Shown one piece after another: positions 11,608 to 62,907 of a stretch of DNA of 64,000 nt. The stretch is from Alphaproteobacteria bacterium (GTDB taxonomy: Bacteria > Pseudomonadota > Alphaproteobacteria > CADEGL01), in assembly GCA_046349515.1 (NCBI GenBank), contig JAXMCE010000001.1, positions 19,809 through 83,808 of the forward strand, written 5' to 3'. The position numbers and the translations under genes are program-made. The notes beneath the pieces were generated by a model, which searched no databases, was not told the DNA's origin, and saw only the letters and a program-made list of their open reading frames with translations. Within the stretch, counting starts at the first letter, position 1; every line of letters begins with the position of its first letter.

Positions 11608-13191
11608 TTAATTCTCCGGGATCTCGTGGGAGGCAAGCTGGTCCTCGACGGAGAACAGCGGTGCCACGCCTTCATAATTGAGCGTCGTCATCATGCCCGC
11701 CAACAAATGGTAAAGGACGTGGCAATGAATCATCCAGATGCCGGGGTTGTCGGCATCGAACTGCACCTTGGCGGTCGAGCGCGAGAGCACGAGGACCGTG
11801 TCGCGCTTGGGGCCGGAGACGGGCGCCCCGCCGAGCTCCGTCACCTCGAAGACATGGCCGTGAAGATGCATGGGATGGGCCATGGCGGTCTTGTTGTCGA
11901 AGACGAGCTCGATCCGCTCGCCGTGCTTCACCCGGAGCGGCGTCACCCGCGGCCAGGTCTCGCCATTGATCGACCAGACATAGCGCATCATGTCGCCGTC
12001 GAGGCCGACCGTGATCGAACGGTCGACCGTTCGCCGAGCGAGCGGCGCCGAGGCTTTGAGGAGGCGTTCCTGGGCATAGTCGAGCGCCGGCGCGGGGGCG
12101 CCCGCGACCTCAGCGATCGGCGATGGCGAAGCCTTGGGTGTCGCGAGCACGAGGCCCGTCTGCTTCGTGGTCCCCTCGCCTTGCGCGAGAATCGGATAGA
12201 CGCCCTCACCGGGCGGGATCGTGAGGCGCAAATCGAGGCGCTGGGCGATGGCCATCTGGAACCGGTTGGCCTGCAAGGGGACGACAGGCTCGCCGTCCGT
12301 CGCGATCACTTCGGCCGCAACCGCCCCCGTCGAGACGATGAAGTTGCTCGCGGCGGCACCGTTGATGATGCGCAGGCGAAGGGTCGAGCCGGGCTCGACC
12401 CGTACCACCTCCGGATCGCTCAGCGTGCGCCAATTGGTGAGGTAGGCGTCGTAATCGACGTCGTTCAAGTCGACGCCGCCCGGCGCCATCGCGGGCATTC
12501 CCGGCATACCCGGCATTCCGCCCGTGCCATGGCCACCGTGCTGAGGCATGCCCGCCATGCCACCCATCGCCCCGTGGCCCGGCATCGCGCCGCCCATGCC
12601 ACTCATGCCGCCCATCCGTCCGCCCTTCTTCAGGCCGCGCCAGATGTCGAGCGGGCTCCTGTTCGACCAGTCGCTCAAGAACATCACGGCCTCGCGCATG
12701 CCCTGCTGCGCTTCGCGGGGGTCCGAGAGGATGAGCGGCGCCGCGAGAAGGCGTTGCTCCTGCAGGCCGTAATGCGAATGCATCCAATAGGTGCCTGCCT
12801 GGAGAATAGGGAAGCTGTAGCGATAGCGTCCGCCCGGCGGAATCGCGGGCTGCGTCACGTAAGCGACACCATCCTGGCGCCAGGGAAGGATGAGGCCGTG
12901 CCAATGGATGCTCGTCGGCTCGCTCGTCAGATTTTCGACGAGCACGTCGAAGCGCTTGCCCTTCTCGAGCGTGAGCCCCCAACTCCCGTCCGGCTGTTCG
13001 AGGCGGAGCACCTCGGCGCTCACCCCGTTGACGACGAGCGGCCGCTCGACGACGCGGAGCACTGTCGGGCGCTGGGACGGCTTGCCGCCGATGCCGGCCG
13101 AGACCGGACGCGGCCACAGGATGGGCGCGGCCGAGAGACCGCCCGACGCGGCAAGGCCTGAGAGGAACCGGCGACGGCGGAGACGGACCAT
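11608..13191 (-). CDS. copA: CopA/PcoA-type multicopper oxidase (Tat-exported)
   Basis: Start MVRLRRRRFLSGLAASGG is a twin-arginine signal. Copper-ligand motifs HWHG, HSH, HPMHLHGH and HCHVLYHLLAGMM are present, with a Met/Gly/His-rich insert (GGMSGMGGAMPGHGAMGGMAGMP...). The track ORF start at 13332 is judged an extension. Confidence 0.85.
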   Translation of the reverse strand: MVRLRRRRFLSGLAASGGLSAAPILWPRPVSAGIGGKPSQRPTVLRVVERPLVVNGVSAEVLRLEQPDGSWGLTLEKGKRFDVLVENLTSEPTSIHWHGLILPWRQDGVAYVTQPAIPPGGRYRYSFPILQAGTYWMHSHYGLQEQRLLAAPLILSDPREAQQGMREAVMFLSDWSNRSPLDIWRGLKKGGRMGGMSGMGGAMPGHGAMGGMAGMPQHGGHGTGGMPGMPGMPAMAPGGVDLNDVDYDAYLTNWRTLSDPEVVRVEPGSTLRLRIINGAAASNFIVSTGAVAAEVIATDGEPVVPLQANRFQMAIAQRLDLRLTIPPGEGVYPILAQGEGTTKQTGLVLATPKASPSPIAEVAGAPAPALDYAQERLLKASAPLARRTVDRSITVGLDGDMMRYVWSINGETWPRVTPLRVKHGERIELVFDNKTAMAHPMHLHGHVFEVTELGGAPVSGPKRDTVLVLSRSTAKVQFDADNPGIWMIHCHVLYHLLAGMMTTLNYEGVAPLFSVEDQLASHEIPEN

Positions 13192-13350
13192 GGGACCTCG
13201 CGGGCGGCGGTCAGGGCCCCCGTTCTGCCACCGGCCGCCGCCAGCGACAAGAAGGCCCCGGAGGACGGCCGGACCGGCGGCGGCTCGCCTTACCGATTTT
13301 CGCCCCCGCAGCGCACGAATTTTTTCCTCCATTGCTAATGAAAGAAAATC

Positions 13351-13389
13351 TGATACTTCTTTGATATATAGTAATAATCAGTTTTATCA
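13351..13389. promoter_or_regulatory. Nested dyad (candidate operator) in AT-rich divergent intergenic region
   Basis: TGATActtcttTGATAtatagtaaTAATCAgtttTATCA. The outer TGATA/TATCA and inner TGATA/TAATCA arms are symmetric about ~13370. It lies between copA (minus) and the hotdog-TetR gene (plus). Confidence 0.3.
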
Positions 13390-13455
13390 CCCACATGCCT
13401 TGACACCCGGCCGAGCGCGCGCGACAAGACCCGACCGACCGATCAGTCAGGACCC

Positions 13456-14517
13456 ATGGTGGACGAGGCCCTCTTCCTCAAAGAGCACGCGCAAGGCCTT
13501 GGCGCGCTCTTGGGAATCACCTTCACGACCGCGCGAAAGGACCTCGTCGTCGGAGAGATGACGCTGACGCCGCACCATCTTCACAGCGGCTCGGTCGTCC
13601 ATGGCGGCATCATCATGGCGCTGGCCGACGAGACGAACGCCTACGGCACCATCCTCAACCTGCCGCCGGGCCACAACACGGCGACGATCGAATCGAAGAC
13701 CAATTTCCTTCGCACGGGTTCGGGCCCGCGGCTCACGGCCGAGGCACGGCCGATTCGCATCGGTCGGCGCACCTCGGTCTGGCGCGCGACCATCTCGCGG
13801 GGCGCGGGCGGCCCCATCGCCGAGGTCACCCAGACCCAGATGGTGTTGGAGGACGAGACCCGCGAGGCCGAGGCGCCGCCGCCCGCGGCCGCCGCGACGA
13901 ATGGCGGCGCCGAGCGCGCGGGCGATACCGCCGCCGAGCGCCGGCGCCAAATCTTCGAGGGTGCCTGCGCGGTCATCACGCGCAAGGGCTTCGACAACGC
14001 CACCATCCGCGAGATCGCCGCGGCCGCCGGCATGCCCGTGCCGACCATGTATCAATACATCAAGCGCAAGGAAGACCTCCTTTCCCTCATCTACGAATAC
14101 TTCATGGAGGACTACATCGGCGCGCTCACGGCGACGGCGAGCGGGCAGCAATCCCCCGAGGCGCGCCTGGCCCACGCCGTGAGGGAGACGATCGAGAACT
14201 TCGATCGCAACCACCGGTTCATCAAGCTCATGTTCCAGGAGACTCGCGCGCTCGATGCCAACTCCCGCGCGCGCGTCTACGACCTCGACGCGCGCTACAT
14301 CGAGGTCTGGAAGACGCTGCTCGCCGAACGCACCGGGACCGAGCCGATCGACGCCGAGCTTGCCGCCAATTTCATCTATTTCCTCTGCACGATCTGGCCG
14401 CTCAGGCACTGGACGATCGGCAAGTACGGCCGCGAGCGCGTGACGGAGGCCATCAGCGCCTTCGTACTCGACGGCCTCGGCCAGCACGCCGCCCCTTCAG
14501 CCAAGGAGAAGCGATGA
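13456..14517 (+). CDS. Fusion protein: PaaI-type hotdog thioesterase domain + TetR-family transcriptional regulator
   Basis: 353 aa. Residues ~1-135 carry a PaaI/4HBT signature (HSGSVVHGGIIMALADETNAYG, ESKTNFLR, IGRRTSVWRATI). An Ala/Pro linker follows. The TetR helix-turn-helix (GFDNATIREIAAAAGMPVPTMYQYIKRKEDLL) and a helical C-domain complete the protein. Confidence 0.8.
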   Translation: MVDEALFLKEHAQGLGALLGITFTTARKDLVVGEMTLTPHHLHSGSVVHGGIIMALADETNAYGTILNLPPGHNTATIESKTNFLRTGSGPRLTAEARPIRIGRRTSVWRATISRGAGGPIAEVTQTQMVLEDETREAEAPPPAAAATNGGAERAGDTAAERRRQIFEGACAVITRKGFDNATIREIAAAAGMPVPTMYQYIKRKEDLLSLIYEYFMEDYIGALTATASGQQSPEARLAHAVRETIENFDRNHRFIKLMFQETRALDANSRARVYDLDARYIEVWKTLLAERTGTEPIDAELAANFIYFLCTIWPLRHWTIGKYGRERVTEAISAFVLDGLGQHAAPSAKEKR

Positions 14518-15710
14518 TGAAGTTCATGTTTTTCTCGGAGGCCGAGACCGCCCCCGGCGCCTCCTACCAGACACGCTACTGGGAGCTCGTCGAGCAGGTC
14601 ATCCACGCCGAGAAGTGGGGCTTCGATTCCTTCGGCGTCTCCGAGCAGCAATACGCGATCGGCGGCATCTCGACCTCCTGCCCCGAAGTGCTCTACGCCT
14701 ATCTCTTCCCCCTCACGAAGACGCTCCGCTTCGCCCACGCGATCACCCTGCTGCCGAAGAACATCAACCACGCGCTCCGGGTCGCCTCGCGCACGGCCGT
14801 CCAGGACGTCCTGTCCAATGGCCGGATCGAGTTGGGCGTCGGGCGCGGCAATACGACCTTGGCGCTCCGCGCCTTCGAGGTCGACCTCGAGCGCAACCGC
14901 GACGAAGTGAACGAGGGGATCCAGGTGCTGAAGAAGGCCTTCACCGAGGATCCGTTCATGTTCTACGGCGAGCACTACAAGATTCCGCCGCGCTCGCTCG
15001 TGCCGAAGCCGCTGCAGACCCCTCACCCGCCGCTCTACGTCGCCGCGACGAGCCCCGAGTCGCACAAGATGGCGGGCGATCTCGGCGTCGGCGTTTACAG
15101 CTGGTCGAATTTCATGGGCTATGACGCGCTCGCCGAATCGGTTTCCGCGTTCAGGAAAGCGGCCGCCGCGACCAAGGCCAAGGGCGAGCATGTGAACGAG
15201 AGCGCGGGCGCCCTCGTCCAATGCTACTGCGCCGAGACCGACGCGATCGCCGAGGCGGAAGCCGGCGAAGGCAACCTCAAGTGGCTGAGGATCGCCCTCG
15301 ACGGCTATCCGCGGCTCGCCAAGATGGCGCAGAGCTACGCCTACATGGCCAAGATCGACGAGGTGTCGCGCAAGACCAGCGACTTCCGCTATTTCACCGA
15401 CGCTTCGGGCGCCGCGATCTTCGGCTCGCCCGAAAGCTGCATCCGCTCGATCGAGCGCCTGGCCGCCTGCGGGATCGATCAGTGCGTCATGCGCATCGAC
15501 AGCACCTCGCACGCGAACATCATGAAGTCGATCGAGATGTTCGGCCGGCACGTCATCCCGCACTTCAAGAACCGGCAGAACTTCATGCGCCCGGCCGAGG
15601 ACGTGATGGCGGACATCCGCGCCATGCGCGAGAAGGCGCGCGCCATGGGCATCTATGTCGAGGGCGGCGAGGAGAAGAAGAAGCCCGTGAAGCCGACGGC
15701 GGCGGAGTAG
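14514..15710 (+). CDS. Luciferase-like (LLM class) flavin-dependent monooxygenase
   Basis: 398 aa with LLM features: WGFDSFGVSEQ, RIELGVGRG and PKPLQTPHPPLYVAA. The ATG overlaps the upstream stop (ATGA), which suggests translational coupling. Confidence 0.85.
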   Translation: MMKFMFFSEAETAPGASYQTRYWELVEQVIHAEKWGFDSFGVSEQQYAIGGISTSCPEVLYAYLFPLTKTLRFAHAITLLPKNINHALRVASRTAVQDVLSNGRIELGVGRGNTTLALRAFEVDLERNRDEVNEGIQVLKKAFTEDPFMFYGEHYKIPPRSLVPKPLQTPHPPLYVAATSPESHKMAGDLGVGVYSWSNFMGYDALAESVSAFRKAAAATKAKGEHVNESAGALVQCYCAETDAIAEAEAGEGNLKWLRIALDGYPRLAKMAQSYAYMAKIDEVSRKTSDFRYFTDASGAAIFGSPESCIRSIERLAACGIDQCVMRIDSTSHANIMKSIEMFGRHVIPHFKNRQNFMRPAEDVMADIRAMREKARAMGIYVEGGEEKKKPVKPTAAE

Positions 15711-15713
15711 CCG

Positions 15714-16178
15714 ATGGCCAAGATCCTCGAGCTCCTGACCGTCAACGTCGCGGTCAAGGATCTGGACGCGGGCCTCGCCAAGTACCGGGCCTTGGGCCTC
15801 GAATCGATCCGCCCCATGGTGATGCCGGAGCTGCCGGCGGCGATCACCGACGTCACCTTCCCCATCGGGGCCGAAGGCTCGATCTCCGTCATCGCGGCGA
15901 TCGGTGAGAAGTCGCCCGTCAAACGCTTCATCGACAAGCGCGGCGAGGGCGTCTACTCGATCGCCGTGCGCGTCGACAGCCTCAAGGACGCGATGGCCGA
16001 GTGGAAGGGGTTCGACTGGGTGCTGCCGGAGCCCTACGAGTTCCCGACACCCAACCAGGCCGCGCGGCATCTACCGGAGAAGCTCCGCGTCAACTGGATC
16101 AAGCCCTCCTCCCTCGCGGGCGTCATGCTCGAAGTGTTCGAGTTCGTGGGCGAGGTCCGCCCCACGCCCAAGGCATGA
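15714..16178 (+). CDS. VOC/glyoxalase-fold protein (methylmalonyl-CoA-epimerase-like)
   Basis: 154 aa. The N-terminal beta-alpha-beta pattern (LTVNVAVKDLDAGLAKYRALGLE) and the motif GEGVYSIAVRVDSL fit the fold. It starts 3 nt after the LLM stop. Confidence 0.6.
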   Translation: MAKILELLTVNVAVKDLDAGLAKYRALGLESIRPMVMPELPAAITDVTFPIGAEGSISVIAAIGEKSPVKRFIDKRGEGVYSIAVRVDSLKDAMAEWKGFDWVLPEPYEFPTPNQAARHLPEKLRVNWIKPSSLAGVMLEVFEFVGEVRPTPKA

Positions 16179-16267
16179 CGGCGCCTCGCGCGGCTCCACC
16201 GCCGCCCTTGTCCCCACCGGCTCGCCATGGCTAACGTCCCGGTTCGCAATCGCGGAGACAACCCGTC

Positions 16268-17800
<1,533 letters not shown>

Positions 17801-17913
17801 CGTGGGCCACGTCGGACAGTGTCGCGCCATGGTGCTGACCACCTGTGCCGTTCGGCTCGCGACGCCCTCATGTTTCGAAGGGCTCACCATGAGGGCTTTC
17901 CCCCACCCTAACT

Positions 17914-17986
17914 TCATCCTGAGCCTGCCGACCTGCCGTCGCCGAAGCGAAGCCGCTTCGGCTTCGCGCGGGCAAGAGGACGAGGC
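17914..17986. repeat. REP-like element, family CATCCTGAGCCTG-CGA...GGACGAGG (copy with internal 9-bp-stem hairpin)
   Basis: TTCATCCTGAGCCTGCCGA...AAGAGGACGAGG with an inserted hairpin GCGAAGCCG-ctt-CGGCTTCGC. A second family member lies at 42502-42567. The element is intergenic. Confidence 0.5.
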
Positions 17987-18018
17987 TTAGAACCACAATT
18001 CACGAAGGGAGCCCGAGA

Positions 18019-18810
18019 ATGGACCGCTACGCGAGCTACAAGGAACTGAAGATCGAGGCCCAGGGGAACGGCGTTCTCCTCGTGACGCTCAACCGGCCGC
18101 AAGTGCTGAACGCCATGACCTACAGCATGCACGGCGAGCTCGCGCGCCTGTGGCACGACATCGACCACGACCCCGACTGCCGCGTCGCCGTCGTCACGGG
18201 CGCGGGCCGCGCCTTCTGTTCGGGCAACGACTTGAAGAACCCCGATCCCGATTTCGACGGCGTGCGCGAGATCATGCAGGACGCGGTGCGCATCGTGCGC
18301 GGCATGGTCGAGTGCGACAAGCCGATCATCTCGGCGATTAACGGCGTCGCGGTGGGGGCCGGGCTCGCGGTCGCGCTCATGGCCGATCTCGCGATCGCGG
18401 CCGAGGATGCGAAGCTCATCGACGGGCACACCGGCGTCGGCGTCGCGGCGGGCGACCACTCGGCGCTCGTCTGGCCGCTTCTCTGCGGCATCGGGCGCGC
18501 GAAGTTCTATCTCTGGAACCTGGCGCCGCTCACGGGGCGCGAGGCCGAGCGCATCGGCCTCGTGACCAAGGCCGTGCCCCAGGACCAGGTGCTGCCGGAG
18601 GCCATGCGCCTTGCGAACCAGTTGGCCCAAGGCCCGCAATACGCGATCCGCGGGACGAAGCGCGCGATCAACGGCTGGCTGCGCCAGGCCATGCCGATCT
18701 TCGAACACTCGGCGGCGCTCGAGATGGTCGACTTCTTCGGCCCGGACGTCGATGCCGCGCGCAAGGCCTTCCGCGCGAAGCAGCCGGTCAAGTTCCCTTC
18801 GGCGCGCTAG
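18019..18810 (+). CDS. Enoyl-CoA hydratase/isomerase (crotonase family)
   Basis: 263 aa with crotonase motifs: VVTGAGRAFCSGNDL and AINGVAVGAGLAVALMADL. An AAGGGAG Shine-Dalgarno precedes the start. Confidence 0.9.
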   Translation: MDRYASYKELKIEAQGNGVLLVTLNRPQVLNAMTYSMHGELARLWHDIDHDPDCRVAVVTGAGRAFCSGNDLKNPDPDFDGVREIMQDAVRIVRGMVECDKPIISAINGVAVGAGLAVALMADLAIAAEDAKLIDGHTGVGVAAGDHSALVWPLLCGIGRAKFYLWNLAPLTGREAERIGLVTKAVPQDQVLPEAMRLANQLAQGPQYAIRGTKRAINGWLRQAMPIFEHSAALEMVDFFGPDVDAARKAFRAKQPVKFPSAR

Positions 18811-18830
18811 CAGGACGGACGAGCCCCGCC

Positions 18831-19229
18831 GTGAAGCCCGTGGCTGTCGGCACCGCGCACACGCGCAGCTTCGCGACCGTGCCCGAGCAATCGGCCGCGG
18901 CGACCGGCAACACCGGCATCGACGTCGTCTCCTCGGTCACGCTCATCGGCTTCATCGAGTACGCGTGTTACGAGATCATCGCGCCCTCGTTCGAGGCGGG
19001 CGAGGCGTCTGTCGGCGTCGGGTTCAACCTGACGCATGTGGCCCCGGCGCCGATCGGCGCCCCCATCACCGTGACGGCGCGCCTCATCCGCATCGAGGGA
19101 CGCAAATACGATTTCGAGACCGAGGCGCGCGCGGGCGAGCGCCTCCTCATGACCGGGACCCACCAGCGCGCGATCGTCGACCTCGCGCGGTTCGGTCCGG
19201 AGGAGCGCGCGCGCAAGAGCGCGCGCTGA
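18831..19229 (+). CDS. Hotdog-fold thioesterase (FlK-like family)
   Basis: 132 aa with a GTG start. The pattern VLSTP.LI..E..C is approximated by VVSSVTLIGFIEYACYE. The family assignment is from memory and is moderate. Confidence 0.6.
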   Translation: MKPVAVGTAHTRSFATVPEQSAAATGNTGIDVVSSVTLIGFIEYACYEIIAPSFEAGEASVGVGFNLTHVAPAPIGAPITVTARLIRIEGRKYDFETEARAGERLLMTGTHQRAIVDLARFGPEERARKSAR

Positions 19230-19251: not shown

Positions 19252-21678
19252 TCAGGCGCGAAGCCTCGCATTCGCCGGATCGTAGACCGGCTCGGCCAGC
19301 ACGTGGGCCGCCCGCCTCTCTCCCAGAAGTTCGATCGAGAGACGCGTTCCCGGCACCGCCGCGTCCGGACGCACATAGGCAAAGGCCAGCGACCGGCCCG
19401 TTCGGTGCCCGAAGGCGCCCGAGGAGGTGAGGCCCACCACCTGGCCGTTGGAGAACACAGCCTCGCCGCCGCGCGCGTCGGACTTGGCGTCTTCGATCGA
19501 GAGATAGGCAAGCCGGTAGGCAAGGGTCCCGGTCTTACGCGCGAGCGTGGCGGCACGGCCACGGAACTCGCCTTTCCCCGCGGCGAAGAAGCGCTCCATG
19601 TCGGCCTCAACCAGCGTGATCTCGTTGGTGAGCTCGCTGCCCCAGCCGCGATAGGCCTTCTCCATGCGGAGGCTGTTGAGCGCATAGAGGCCGAAATCGG
19701 CGATGCCGAGCGGCTCGCCCGCGCGCCAGACGAGGTCGTAGAGGCGCTTCATGTCGCCCGTCGGGACATGGAGCTCCCAGCCGAGCTCGCCCACATAGTT
19801 GACGCGGAGCGCCCGCAAGCCGACGCCGCCAAGCTTGAGCTCGCGCGCCGTGAGCCAGGGGAAGGCCGCGTTGCCGAGGTCTTCGTTGGTCAAGCCGGTC
19901 AGGAGATCGCGCGAGCGCGGCCCCGCGACCACGAGGACGCCGTGGCGATCAGTCACGTTGTCGACGCGAACGTCTTCGCCGGGCCGGCGCAACTGGGTCA
20001 AGAAATCGAGGTCGCGCCGCTCGGCCGCGATCGAGGAGAGAAGATAGAAGCGATCGTCCGCGAGGCGCGTGACGGTGAACTCCGTCTCGATCCGTCCGCT
20101 CTCAGTCAAGAGATGGCTCAAGACGATGCCGCCCGTCTTCCTCGGCAGGCGGTTCGAGAGAATGCGGTCGAGGAAGGACGCGGCACCGCGCCCCGACACT
20201 TCGAACTTGGCGAAGCTCGTGAGATCGGCGATGCCGACCCGCTCGGCGACCGCCCGGCACTCCTCGCCCACGGGCTCGAACACGTTGGTGCGCCCGAAGC
20301 CGGGCTCTTCGACCCGGCCGTCGCGCGAGAACCATTTGGGCCGCTCGTAGCCGCCGCCCTCGGTGAAGACGCAGCCCTTGGCGGCCAGGGTCTCGTGGAG
20401 CGGCGATGTGCGCGTCGGGCGTCCGGCCGGCCGCTCCTCGCCGGGCACGTGCGTCACGAACATGTGGTGATAGTCGTCGAAGGACTTGGCTCGCACGTAA
20501 TCCTTGTCGGCGTAAGGGCCGAAGCGGCGCGAATCGAAATCCTTCATGTTGATCTCGGCCGCGCCCTCGACCATCCACTGCGCCAAGTACTTGCCGCAGC
20601 CGGCGCCTTGCGCGATGCCGACCGAGCAGCCGCAGCACAGCCAGAAGTTGCGCAGGCCCGCGGCCGGGCCGAGCAAGGGATTGCCGTCCGGCGAGTGCGG
20701 AATGGCGCCGTTCACGATGCGCTTGATGCCAACCGTGGCGAAGATCGGCATGCGCTCCATCACGCGCCCGAGCCAGACGTCGATCCGGTCGAGATCGCCC
20801 GCGAAGAGCTCGTTGCTCGACGGCCAGTCGGGCGAACCGCCGCGGGCGCTCCACGCCTCCTCAGCGCCCTGGTGCTCGTAGATGCCGATCAACCCCGCCT
20901 TTTGCTCCTGCCGGTAGTAGCCGGCCGTGTAGGGATCGCGCATGACCGGGATCTCCTCCCGGCGCTCCTGGAACTCCTTGATCGTCTCGGTCACGAGGTA
21001 CTGGTGTTCCATGTTGGTGATGGGAACGTCGATGCCGACCATCTGGCCGATCTCGCGAGCATTGCAGCCGGCGGCGTTCACCACGTGCTCGGCCAGGAAA
21101 TCGCCCTTCTCGCTCTCGACGAGCCAGGCGCCATCGCGCTGCCGGGTGATGGCCGTCACCCGGCAGCGGCGCAGGATCTCGGCGCCGAGATTACGCGCCG
21201 CGATCGCGAGCGCGTTGCAGCAGCCGGCGGGATCGACATGGCCGTCATCGAGGGTCCAGGCGCCGGCGACGACGCCGTCGACCGTGAGGAAGGGATTGAT
21301 CTTCCGAATCTCGTCCGGCCCGACGATCTCCATGCGGAAGCCGATCTCGTGGGCGGAGCTCTGCACATACTTGAACCAGTCGAGCTCGTCGCGGTTGGTC
21401 GCGATGCGAATGCCGCCGCAGCCGTGCCAGCCCGTGTATTGACCGGTCATGGCCTCGAGCTTCGGGTAGAGCGTGTTCGCGTAGTGGTGGATCTTGCCGA
21501 TGGCGTAGTTGCCGAGGACGCTCGCGACCTGCCCCGCGGCGTGCCAGGTCGAGCCCGAGGTGAGCTCGCCCTTCTCGATCAAGAGCACATCCTTCCAGCC
21601 GAGCTCCGCCAAGTGATAGAGGAGGCCCACCCCCATCATGCCACCGCCGATGATGACCACGCGCTTCGTTTGAGGCAT
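19252..21678 (-). CDS. Dimethylglycine/sarcosine dehydrogenase family protein (FAD oxidoreductase fused to GcvT-like folate domain)
   Basis: 808 aa. N-terminal FAD motif VVIIGGGMMGVGLLYHLA and the covalent-flavin region SGSTWHAAGQ are present, followed by a C-terminal aminomethyltransferase-like domain. Confidence 0.9.
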   Translation of the reverse strand: MPQTKRVVIIGGGMMGVGLLYHLAELGWKDVLLIEKGELTSGSTWHAAGQVASVLGNYAIGKIHHYANTLYPKLEAMTGQYTGWHGCGGIRIATNRDELDWFKYVQSSAHEIGFRMEIVGPDEIRKINPFLTVDGVVAGAWTLDDGHVDPAGCCNALAIAARNLGAEILRRCRVTAITRQRDGAWLVESEKGDFLAEHVVNAAGCNAREIGQMVGIDVPITNMEHQYLVTETIKEFQERREEIPVMRDPYTAGYYRQEQKAGLIGIYEHQGAEEAWSARGGSPDWPSSNELFAGDLDRIDVWLGRVMERMPIFATVGIKRIVNGAIPHSPDGNPLLGPAAGLRNFWLCCGCSVGIAQGAGCGKYLAQWMVEGAAEINMKDFDSRRFGPYADKDYVRAKSFDDYHHMFVTHVPGEERPAGRPTRTSPLHETLAAKGCVFTEGGGYERPKWFSRDGRVEEPGFGRTNVFEPVGEECRAVAERVGIADLTSFAKFEVSGRGAASFLDRILSNRLPRKTGGIVLSHLLTESGRIETEFTVTRLADDRFYLLSSIAAERRDLDFLTQLRRPGEDVRVDNVTDRHGVLVVAGPRSRDLLTGLTNEDLGNAAFPWLTARELKLGGVGLRALRVNYVGELGWELHVPTGDMKRLYDLVWRAGEPLGIADFGLYALNSLRMEKAYRGWGSELTNEITLVEADMERFFAAGKGEFRGRAATLARKTGTLAYRLAYLSIEDAKSDARGGEAVFSNGQVVGLTSSGAFGHRTGRSLAFAYVRPDAAVPGTRLSIELLGERRAAHVLAEPVYDPANARLRA

Positions 21679-62376: not shown

Positions 62377-62907
62377 TTACGGCTTGGCTGAACGGATACG
62401 GATCAAGGAACCATCGACCGCGAAGGTGCCGTAGCCGCGGTGGTGGATGGTCTTCGGGTTCTTCTGCCTGGGGTCGATCCAGGCCTCGACGACTTCGAGG
62501 ATGAAGAGATTGCGGCTCTTCACCATGCGCCGGTCGACGACGCGGCATTCGAGGTTGGCGAAGCATTCCTCGATGAGCGGCGGCGCCACGTGCCCCGCCG
62601 CGCGCGCCGTCAGGTGGAAGGCCTTGAACTTGTCACGCGCGCGGCCCGATGCGTTGCCGACCTTGACGACCGTCGCCGCGAGCGTCCGCGCCGGAATTGC
62701 GATCACGCATTCGCCGGTCGCATTCAAGGCCGCGAAGCTGTGATTGGCCCCGCTCACGATGCAGGCGATCGTCGGCGGCTCGAACTCGACCATCATGTGC
62801 CAGGACATGGCCATGACGTTGGCCCGGCCCTTGTGCGCGGTCGTCAGCAGCACGACCGGCCCGGGCTCGATCAGCTGATAGACCTTGGAGAGTGGCAGGC
62901 GCTTCAT
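62377..62907 (-). CDS. Flavin reductase-like FMN-binding protein
   Basis: 176 aa from MKRLPLSKVYQLIEPGPVVLLTT. It contains NVMAMSWHMMV and ECFANLECRVV. Confidence 0.85.
   Translation of the reverse strand: MKRLPLSKVYQLIEPGPVVLLTTAHKGRANVMAMSWHMMVEFEPPTIACIVSGANHSFAALNATGECVIAIPARTLAATVVKVGNASGRARDKFKAFHLTARAAGHVAPPLIEECFANLECRVVDRRMVKSRNLFILEVVEAWIDPRQKNPKTIHHRGYGTFAVDGSLIRIRSAKP

Follow-up and report, generated by a model that had tools for sequence, protein, structure and literature searches.

A conserved gene module around a luciferase-like monooxygenase in uncultured Alphaproteobacteria and its proposed role in the oxygenation of coenzyme A thioesters

Coenzyme A (CoA) serves as a temporary handle in activate-transform-release routes that end with a hotdog thioesterase, such as the Streptomyces route through salicylyl-CoA 5-hydroxylase and the 4-chlorobenzoate trio (ligase, crotonase-family dehalogenase and hotdog thioesterase), in which the crotonase fold performs non-hydratase chemistry. 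The aerobic hybrid systems for phenylacetate (paa, paaABCDE-G-Z-I-K) and benzoate (box) combine a ligase, an oxygenase and a non-hydratase crotonase (PaaG, BoxC) that remodels the oxygenated ring, with a PaaI-type hotdog thioesterase acting as a safety valve in paa, and camphor degradation unites luciferase-like monooxygenases (LLMs; 2,5- and 3,6-diketocamphane monooxygenase) that depend on reduced flavin mononucleotide (FMNH2) with a trans-acting flavin reductase, a ligase and a crotonase-fold C-C hydrolase (6-oxocamphor hydrolase, Rhodococcus). Here we examine six co-directional genes within a 64,000-nt stretch of an Alphaproteobacteria bacterium genome (assembly GCA_046349515.1, contig JAXMCE010000001.1, positions 19,809-83,808 of the forward strand), hereafter called the window; the source genome comprises 3.99 Mb in 38 contigs at a completeness of 92.9%. 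We lean towards reading the six genes, listed below by window position, as a single autoregulated catabolic operon in which a carboxylic acid would be processed as its CoA thioester and oxygenated by an LLM.

13456-14517, plus strand: PaaI-type hotdog-TetR fusion (4HBT, TetR_N and TetR_C_24 domains; Pfam, NCBIfam)
14514-15710, plus strand: flavin-dependent LLM (Bac_luciferase PF00296, residues 2-323, 152 bits against a cutoff of 27.9)
15714-16178, plus strand: VOC-fold protein with the methylmalonyl-CoA epimerase (MCE) fold (Glyoxalase_4)
16268-17800, plus strand: AMP-forming acyl-CoA ligase, PRK06187-like (AMP-binding and AMP-binding_C)
18019-18810, plus strand: EchA15/PRK07327-type crotonase (ECH_1; NF005595, 329 bits against a cutoff of 292)
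18831-19229, plus strand: FlK-family hotdog thioesterase (PF22636, 88.5 bits against a cutoff of 27)

In gene order the spacings are a 4-nt ATGA overlap followed by gaps of 3, 89, 218 and 20 nt. An earlier note on this DNA had described the genes as co-directional, with the ATGA overlap, gaps of 3, 89 and 20 nt, a further gap holding repetitive extragenic palindromic (REP) sequence and these domain assignments, and the open reading frames, the Pfam and NCBIfam domains and the gaps all agree with it. The partners of the LLM all come from families that handle CoA esters, as seen in the ligase, the MCE fold, the crotonase oxyanion hole, the FlK catalytic triad and the TetR_C_24 regulator, which argues for the processing of a CoA ester.

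The likeness to paa and box lies in the ligase, in an oxygenase that we take to act on a CoA ester and in a crotonase that, as in E. coli PaaG, is devoid of the hydratase glutamates. The safety-valve thioesterase of paa likewise has a counterpart in the hotdog part of the window regulator. With E. coli PaaI this part shares 33% identity (E=5e-9) and, at the corresponding position, the LAD motif. The oxygenase, by contrast, is an LLM, and the operon holds no PaaZ, thiolase or dehydrogenase set and carries an additional MCE-fold protein. The earlier statement that signature paa genes are missing is borne out, since the diiron PaaA/PaaC family PF05138 is unmatched in the 92.9%-complete genome and the models for PaaG (TIGR02280, 130.6 versus 345.15 bits) and PaaI (TIGR02286, 44 versus 118.9) stay below cutoff.

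Compared with the 4-chlorobenzoate trio, the window adds an LLM and a VOC protein, and its thioesterase is of the FlK rather than the 4HBT type. Camphor degradation offers a similar set of enzymes, yet the LLMs are only ~21% identical, the window crotonase is far closer to EchA15, and the camphor LLMs act on free ketones. Mycobacterial EchA15 (Rv2679 orthologues; Protein Data Bank (PDB) entries 3qk8, 7m3w and 3q1t) belongs to the same crotonase family at 240-252 bits and shares the motif DGH(T/L)xxGVAAGDH, as does Thermus 1wz8 at 197 bits. The EchA15 structures are structural-genomics entries for which our literature search found no described function, and the M. tuberculosis gene is not known to have an LLM gene beside it. 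Actinobacterial versions of the module are similar in composition to mel2 (melF-melK, Rv1936-1941) of M. tuberculosis and M. marinum, a lux-like set that combines an LLM with flavin and riboflavin genes (PMC5584760) and is tied to oxidative-stress resistance rather than built on a ligase-crotonase core.

Within the reach of the tools used, the module is uncharacterised. Every curated equivalog model matched by its proteins scores below cutoff, and the sole curated model that is passed is the provisional subfamily model NF005595 (PRK07327), by the crotonase. An exhaustive profile-free search returned 206 cluster representatives of the LLM at E<1e-30 among 1.8 billion, which defines a narrow family, and the names of the clusters looked up, including distant ones at 35-47% identity, are generic or absent, with no characterised member among them. 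A full-text keyword search of the literature surfaced only the mel2 locus, an analogue, and no described system of this kind. The earlier description of the operon as an orphan is thereby supported, and we view the module as a putative variant of CoA-dependent oxygenative catabolism assembled from known enzyme superfamilies. One cluster with a 41% identical LLM (P0129) lies beside hydantoinase/oxoprolinase-type genes; we took it as the outer limit of the family, not as a clue.

To follow the gene linkage, a pattern scan with one genome per species was used, which returned 413 loci; the best 80 were fetched and the six window proteins were mapped onto them by tblastn. The alphaproteobacterial tally covers 29 loci with at least 4.5 kb downstream, with counts made on the same strand and ligase orthologues defined by at least 60% identity. 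A VOC gene adjoins the LLM in 26 of these loci, an orthologous ligase (71-90% identical) is linked to it upstream or downstream in 20, and the hotdog-TetR gene adjoins it in 18, while an orthologous crotonase is present in 10 and the FlK-like thioesterase, the least conserved part, in four. Gene order is shuffled with content kept, the arrangements including hotdog-TetR, LLM, VOC, ligase; ligase, hotdog-TetR, LLM, VOC, crotonase, FlK; hotdog-TetR, thiolase-like, LLM, VOC, crotonase, FlK; and the window's own order. The order LLM, VOC, crotonase recurs in loci L003-L006, L017, L019, L084 and L086, with FlK next in most, and FlK lies downstream of the crotonase in L001, L003, L006, L017, L019, L084 and L086. 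In L017, L019, L026 and L027 a thiolase-like gene (Thiolase_C_1, SCP-x type) stands between the hotdog-TetR and LLM genes, and these loci have no adjacent ligase. Two contigs from uncultured Alphaproteobacteria each carry a paralogous LLM pair ~12 kb apart (L031/L032 and L033/L034), one copy with VOC and crotonase and the other alone or with a crotonase only.

LLM homologues at 57-94% identity come solely from uncultured Alphaproteobacteria (labelled Stellaceae, Rhodospirillaceae, Acetobacteraceae and the like), and a second tier at 45-49% identity is found in the Actinobacteria (Mycolicibacterium, Mycobacterium, Amycolatopsis, Pseudonocardia, Streptomyces, Nocardia and Saccharopolyspora). Among the 39 other, mostly actinobacterial loci, a crotonase 52-56% identical to that of the window directly follows the LLM in 35, often with a second crotonase present, and 33 carry a long-chain-type acyl-CoA synthetase of 636 aa that belongs to another family (AMP-binding_C_3). 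A TetR_C_24 regulator is found in 20 of them and a creatininase-family amidohydrolase in 17, and several hold a flavin reductase, RibBA, a short-chain dehydrogenase/reductase (SDR) or a major facilitator superfamily transporter. Even where the LLM is no more than 42-49% identical, in Actinobacteria and in metagenomic loci, the LLM, crotonase and ligase genes stay linked, with start and stop codons that overlap by 4 nt (L083, L089, L082). Metagenomic locus L082 aligns a LIV-type ABC transporter, RidA, LLM, VOC, crotonase, ligase, amidase, aldehyde dehydrogenase and a TetR_C_24 regulator; L089, also metagenomic, combines VOC, LLM, crotonase, acyl-CoA synthetase, a LIV-type binding protein, flavin reductase and RibBA, and its LLM/crotonase and crotonase/ligase gene pairs each overlap by 4 nt. 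The conserved core is therefore an LLM and an acyl-CoA ligase with a VOC protein and/or an EchA15-type crotonase under a TetR_C_24 regulator, and the module is conserved across two phyla, far beyond chance. For the six-gene set described in the earlier note, the linkage is conserved both in relatives and across phyla, and the complete set is confined to a small clade. In six Streptomyces assemblies (L037, L038, L041, L045, L059 and L074) the LLM orthologue is the only gene on a contig of just 1.2-1.3 kb, which suggests that its flanks are repeated or hard to assemble.

Fold searches with the window LLM return LLM structures, and its nearest solved relatives, at ~21% identity, are RslO1, Atu2307, luciferases, the OX domain of PuwE, Mer and 3,6-diketocamphane monooxygenase; the curated LLM subfamily models all remain below cutoff. 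The subfamily is single copy in the genome, where the nearest paralogue is 35% identical and lies in a 60%-GC stretch of contig C4. With ~24 luciferase-like matches in 4 Mb, the genome displays a large paralogue expansion that recalls those of SAR202 bacteria, which have been proposed to serve the oxidation of recalcitrant organic matter (PMC5395668).

The crotonase carries the DGHT...AAGDH motif in common with 3qk8, 7m3w and 1wz8, matches 3qk8 at 5.7e-74 and scores 252 bits against M. marinum EchA15; beyond the EchA15 group and M. avium 3rrv, the next solved relatives are PaaG (1e-34) and 6-oxocamphor hydrolase (1szo, 9e-29). As a criterion for hydratase function we used the two catalytic glutamates of the true hydratase E. 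coli PaaF, found in its GAGCE and LPE motifs. Alignment with PaaF and PaaG places Ala117 and Thr138 at these positions, a replacement conserved in 50 orthologues; the protein is therefore not a hydratase. His137, Asp146 and His147 are conserved in the same orthologues, Asp146 aligns to within one column with the Asp of the PaaG IPDCGG loop, and the oxyanion-hole motifs FCSGND and GAG are retained. His137 and Asp146 might conceivably correspond to the His/Asp dyad of 6-oxocamphor hydrolase. The crotonase thus most resembles the isomerase/hydrolase branch of the superfamily and presumably acts on an oxygenated CoA ester. The activation, oxygenation, crotonase and release logic of the earlier note is supported in its general course, with the correction that its crotonase chemistry is not hydration.

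The AlphaFold2 model of the VOC protein (mean predicted local distance difference test (pLDDT) score of 92) has only MCEs as top PDB matches (template modelling scores of 0.75-0.82), although at the sequence level the protein fails the test for a true methylmalonyl-CoA epimerase (TIGR03081, 47.6 versus 114.95 bits), so that only the fold matches. In the His/Gln/His/Glu metal site the first His has given way to a nearly invariant Thr9; Tyr-Ser stands at the HH position, and Asp46, Glu140 and Glu143 are invariant, features that set apart a distinct and conserved subfamily. Judging from the modelled fold, the protein presumably acts as an acyl-CoA alpha-carbon epimerase or isomerase, and its substrate would be a CoA ester with an acidic alpha carbon and devoid of the free carboxylate that the metal binds in true epimerases. 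The closest solved relatives of the ligase are a fatty-acyl-CoA synthase and a feruloyl-CoA synthetase, which are not diagnostic of its substrate. In the thioesterase, Ser35, Glu43 and His69 align with FlK residues 42, 50 and 76 (3kuv) and the Arg matching FlK 120 is kept; with triad and Arg retained, the enzyme looks catalytically competent. As for the regulator, its effector domain is of the acyl-CoA-sensing TetR_C_24 type with FadR/FasR-type matches, and stand-alone TetR_C_24 regulators flank actinobacterial and other distant loci. The fusion is presumably an acyl-CoA-responsive repressor of the operon, and its hotdog domain (window 13456-13900) may, beyond ligand sensing, be an active thioesterase.

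From the gene content, family memberships, residue patterns and linkage observed here, we infer an order of steps in a catabolic route whose LLM would act, with a flavin, on a CoA ester rather than on the free acid. The ligase would first turn the acid into an acyl-CoA, which the LLM would oxygenate by hydroxylation, epoxidation or Baeyer-Villiger insertion, using FMNH2 supplied by one of four unlinked flavin reductases. The MCE-fold VOC protein could then epimerise or shift the acidic alpha position, and the crotonase, by means of its thioester oxyanion hole and a His/Asp set, would isomerise the oxygenated intermediate or open it by hydrolysis; the pairing of crotonase and FlK genes suggests that the crotonase product is itself a thioester. 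The FlK-like thioesterase would finally free the product acid or rescue CoA from dead-end intermediates, and the hotdog-TetR fusion would sense a pathway acyl-CoA and thereby derepress the operon.

Several observations weigh against this CoA-thioester operon. Many relatives carry LLM, VOC and ligase genes without a nearby crotonase or thioesterase and hold, elsewhere in the genome, a best crotonase of only 44-47% identity, so that the crotonase step is not universal; ligase and crotonase are parted by the 218-nt repeat-filled gap; the substrate-specific equivalog models all stay below cutoff; the structure model of the LLM is only moderately confident (pLDDT of 70); and contig C5 of the window genome (89355-94010) carries contiguous genes for CofE, CofD and a fused FbiC (cofG/H), that is, the biosynthesis of coenzyme F420. 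Two unrelated modules, LLM-VOC-ligase and crotonase-thioesterase, might have come to adjoin by chance in this lineage with the repeat between them, as the REP-filled gap, the ~19 of 29 alphaproteobacterial loci that have no nearby orthologous crotonase and the scarcity of the thioesterase there would suggest. We hold this improbable, since LLM and crotonase family members are immediate neighbours in nearly all of the non-alphaproteobacterial loci, where the stop codon of one gene often overlaps the start codon of the next, the LLM-VOC-crotonase order recurs in the loci named above, mostly with FlK behind it, and the gap holds no terminator-like site. As in camphor degradation, a free cyclic ketone or diketone could instead be the substrate of the LLM, which would then be a hydroxylase or a type II Baeyer-Villiger enzyme, and perhaps also of the crotonase, the ligase activating the ring-opened acid afterwards and oxygenation being independent of CoA. 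The solved relatives of the LLM (Baeyer-Villiger-type RslO1, luciferases, 3,6-diketocamphane monooxygenase), the CoA-independent 6-oxocamphor hydrolase among those of the crotonase, and the lactone- or ester-type hydrolases (metallo-beta-lactamase, alpha/beta esterase) that recur near some loci would all fit such an order. Though a serious rival, it nevertheless appears unlikely to us, because the crotonase keeps thioester oxyanion-hole motifs and has far closer relatives in EchA15 and PaaG than in 6-oxocamphor hydrolase, a thioesterase directly follows it, the VOC partner has a CoA-ester epimerase fold and the regulator is of an acyl-CoA-sensing type.

A stress or detoxification system like mycobacterial mel2, in which the module would clear away oxidised or reactive acyl species instead of serving catabolism, is suggested by distant loci that combine LLM, flavin reductase, RibBA and SDR genes and so recall the lux-like Rv1936-1941 set (PMC5584760). 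There is little to recommend it for the window, where the LLM matches 3,6-diketocamphane monooxygenase only at E=2.4e-6, whereas MelF is reported to be 36% identical to that enzyme; this differing closeness, known for MelF from the reported identity, suggests that the two LLMs belong to different subfamilies, and the neighbours of the module (LIV-type and polar-amino-acid ABC transporters, amidases, aldehyde dehydrogenase, ligases) look catabolic. The cof and fbiC genes in turn raised F420 dependence, under which the LLM would be a reductase or dehydrogenase, for instance of an enoyl- or oxo-acyl-CoA, and the operon would not be oxygenative; other members of the LLM family come chiefly from Actinobacteria, which are F420 producers, and the best NCBIfam match of the window LLM is the F420 family TIGR03619. 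That match, at 94.9 bits, is far under the 166.9-bit cutoff and tied with FMN families, and in PDB sequence matches FMN enzymes outrank the F420 enzyme Mer by ~10 orders of magnitude. Across the 12 genomes of the window's taxonomic family, the LLM is present in 10 and CofE in four; of the 10 genomes with the LLM, seven yielded no CofE, among them G001 at ~100% completeness, and one CofE genome is without the LLM, so the LLM does not track F420 biosynthesis. On these phyletic grounds F420 dependence was rejected as highly improbable. Together with the NAD(P)H:flavin-reductase (Flavin_Reduct) genes embedded in distant clusters and the lead of FMN enzymes among the sequence matches, the lack of co-occurrence with CofE makes the LLM of the proposed CoA-thioester operon probably FMNH2-dependent. 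The four flavin reductases of the genome (PF01613) are unlinked to the operon; one of them lies within the window at ~62425-62865 on the minus strand, ~43 kb downstream, and is a possible FMNH2 supplier.

As for the substrate, amidase, creatininase or M20 genes and LIV-type or polar-amino-acid ABC transporters recur near module loci, and the hotdog domain of the regulator belongs to the PaaI-type, aryl-CoA class. These faint hints suggest an acid freed from an amide, perhaps an aromatic or alicyclic one. A bolder proposal, which we put forward as doubtful, is that the LLM is the first luciferase-family oxygenase of CoA thioesters in catabolism, stands in for the diiron epoxidases of paa and box and forms with the crotonase, from the widespread EchA15 family to which M. 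tuberculosis EchA15 also belongs, a third type of aerobic 'hybrid' pathway, fed by an aromatic or alicyclic acid from an amide conjugate. If CoA-thioester oxygenation by the LLM is true, the module would bring a new oxygenase class to the few oxic routes that attack organic acids as CoA thioesters, and it would for the first time place the EchA15 crotonase family, with structures from three mycobacteria, and the His-less MCE-fold subfamily in a functional setting. The module occurs in ~413 species-level genomes, among them those of abundant uncultured soil and freshwater Alphaproteobacteria and of cultured Mycolicibacterium, Amycolatopsis, Pseudonocardia and Streptomyces; because cultured carriers exist, such as Mycolicibacterium litorale F4, M. 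wolinskyi ATCC 700010, Amycolatopsis rubida DSM 44637 and Pseudonocardia spinosispora DSM 44797, it can be tested in the laboratory. It may bear on the turnover of a common environmental acid or amide and, its function being predicted from sequence, is a good experimental lead.

The proposed operon is bounded on both sides by genes on the opposite strand, and it is preceded and interrupted by two noncoding segments:

11608-13332, minus strand: multicopper oxidase gene, divergent, upstream boundary
13325-13455, no strand: candidate operator of the TetR fusion, an AT-rich spacer that carries promoter-like sites (sequence read)
17801-18018, no strand: gap with a dispersed hairpin element resembling REP sequences or miniature inverted-repeat transposable elements (genome repeat matches, folding)
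19252-21678, minus strand: DAO/GcvT-type dehydrogenase gene, convergent, downstream boundary

GC content at third codon positions is 0.89-0.94 in all six genes, far above the 0.62-0.69 of long antisense reading frames, which marks the six as real genes. The upstream region holds a TTGACA at ~13400. Consensus scans detected a promoter-like match at 13350-13378 in that region and one weak promoter-like match within the LLM gene; they detected no plus-strand terminator-like site within the six-gene unit, the 218-nt gap included. The LLM and VOC genes share a reading frame, separated by a stop codon and 3 nt (window 15708-15716), and one protein of 556 aa from a metagenome (P0089) looks like a fusion of LLM and VOC, which could reflect natural read-through or a sequencing error. 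This protein and a TetR-LLM fusion (P0094) each occur on a single contig and are possible read-through or frameshift artefacts; both were excluded from the evidence.

The repeat in the 218-nt gap has 15 matches in the genome, on contigs C1, C7, C8, C11 and C13, and the copy at window positions 17830-17990 forms long hairpins (minimum free energy of -92 kcal/mol, z = -2.3). In the closest relative (L001) the spacer between ligase and crotonase measures ~105 nt, a length that the repeat copy roughly doubles in the window.

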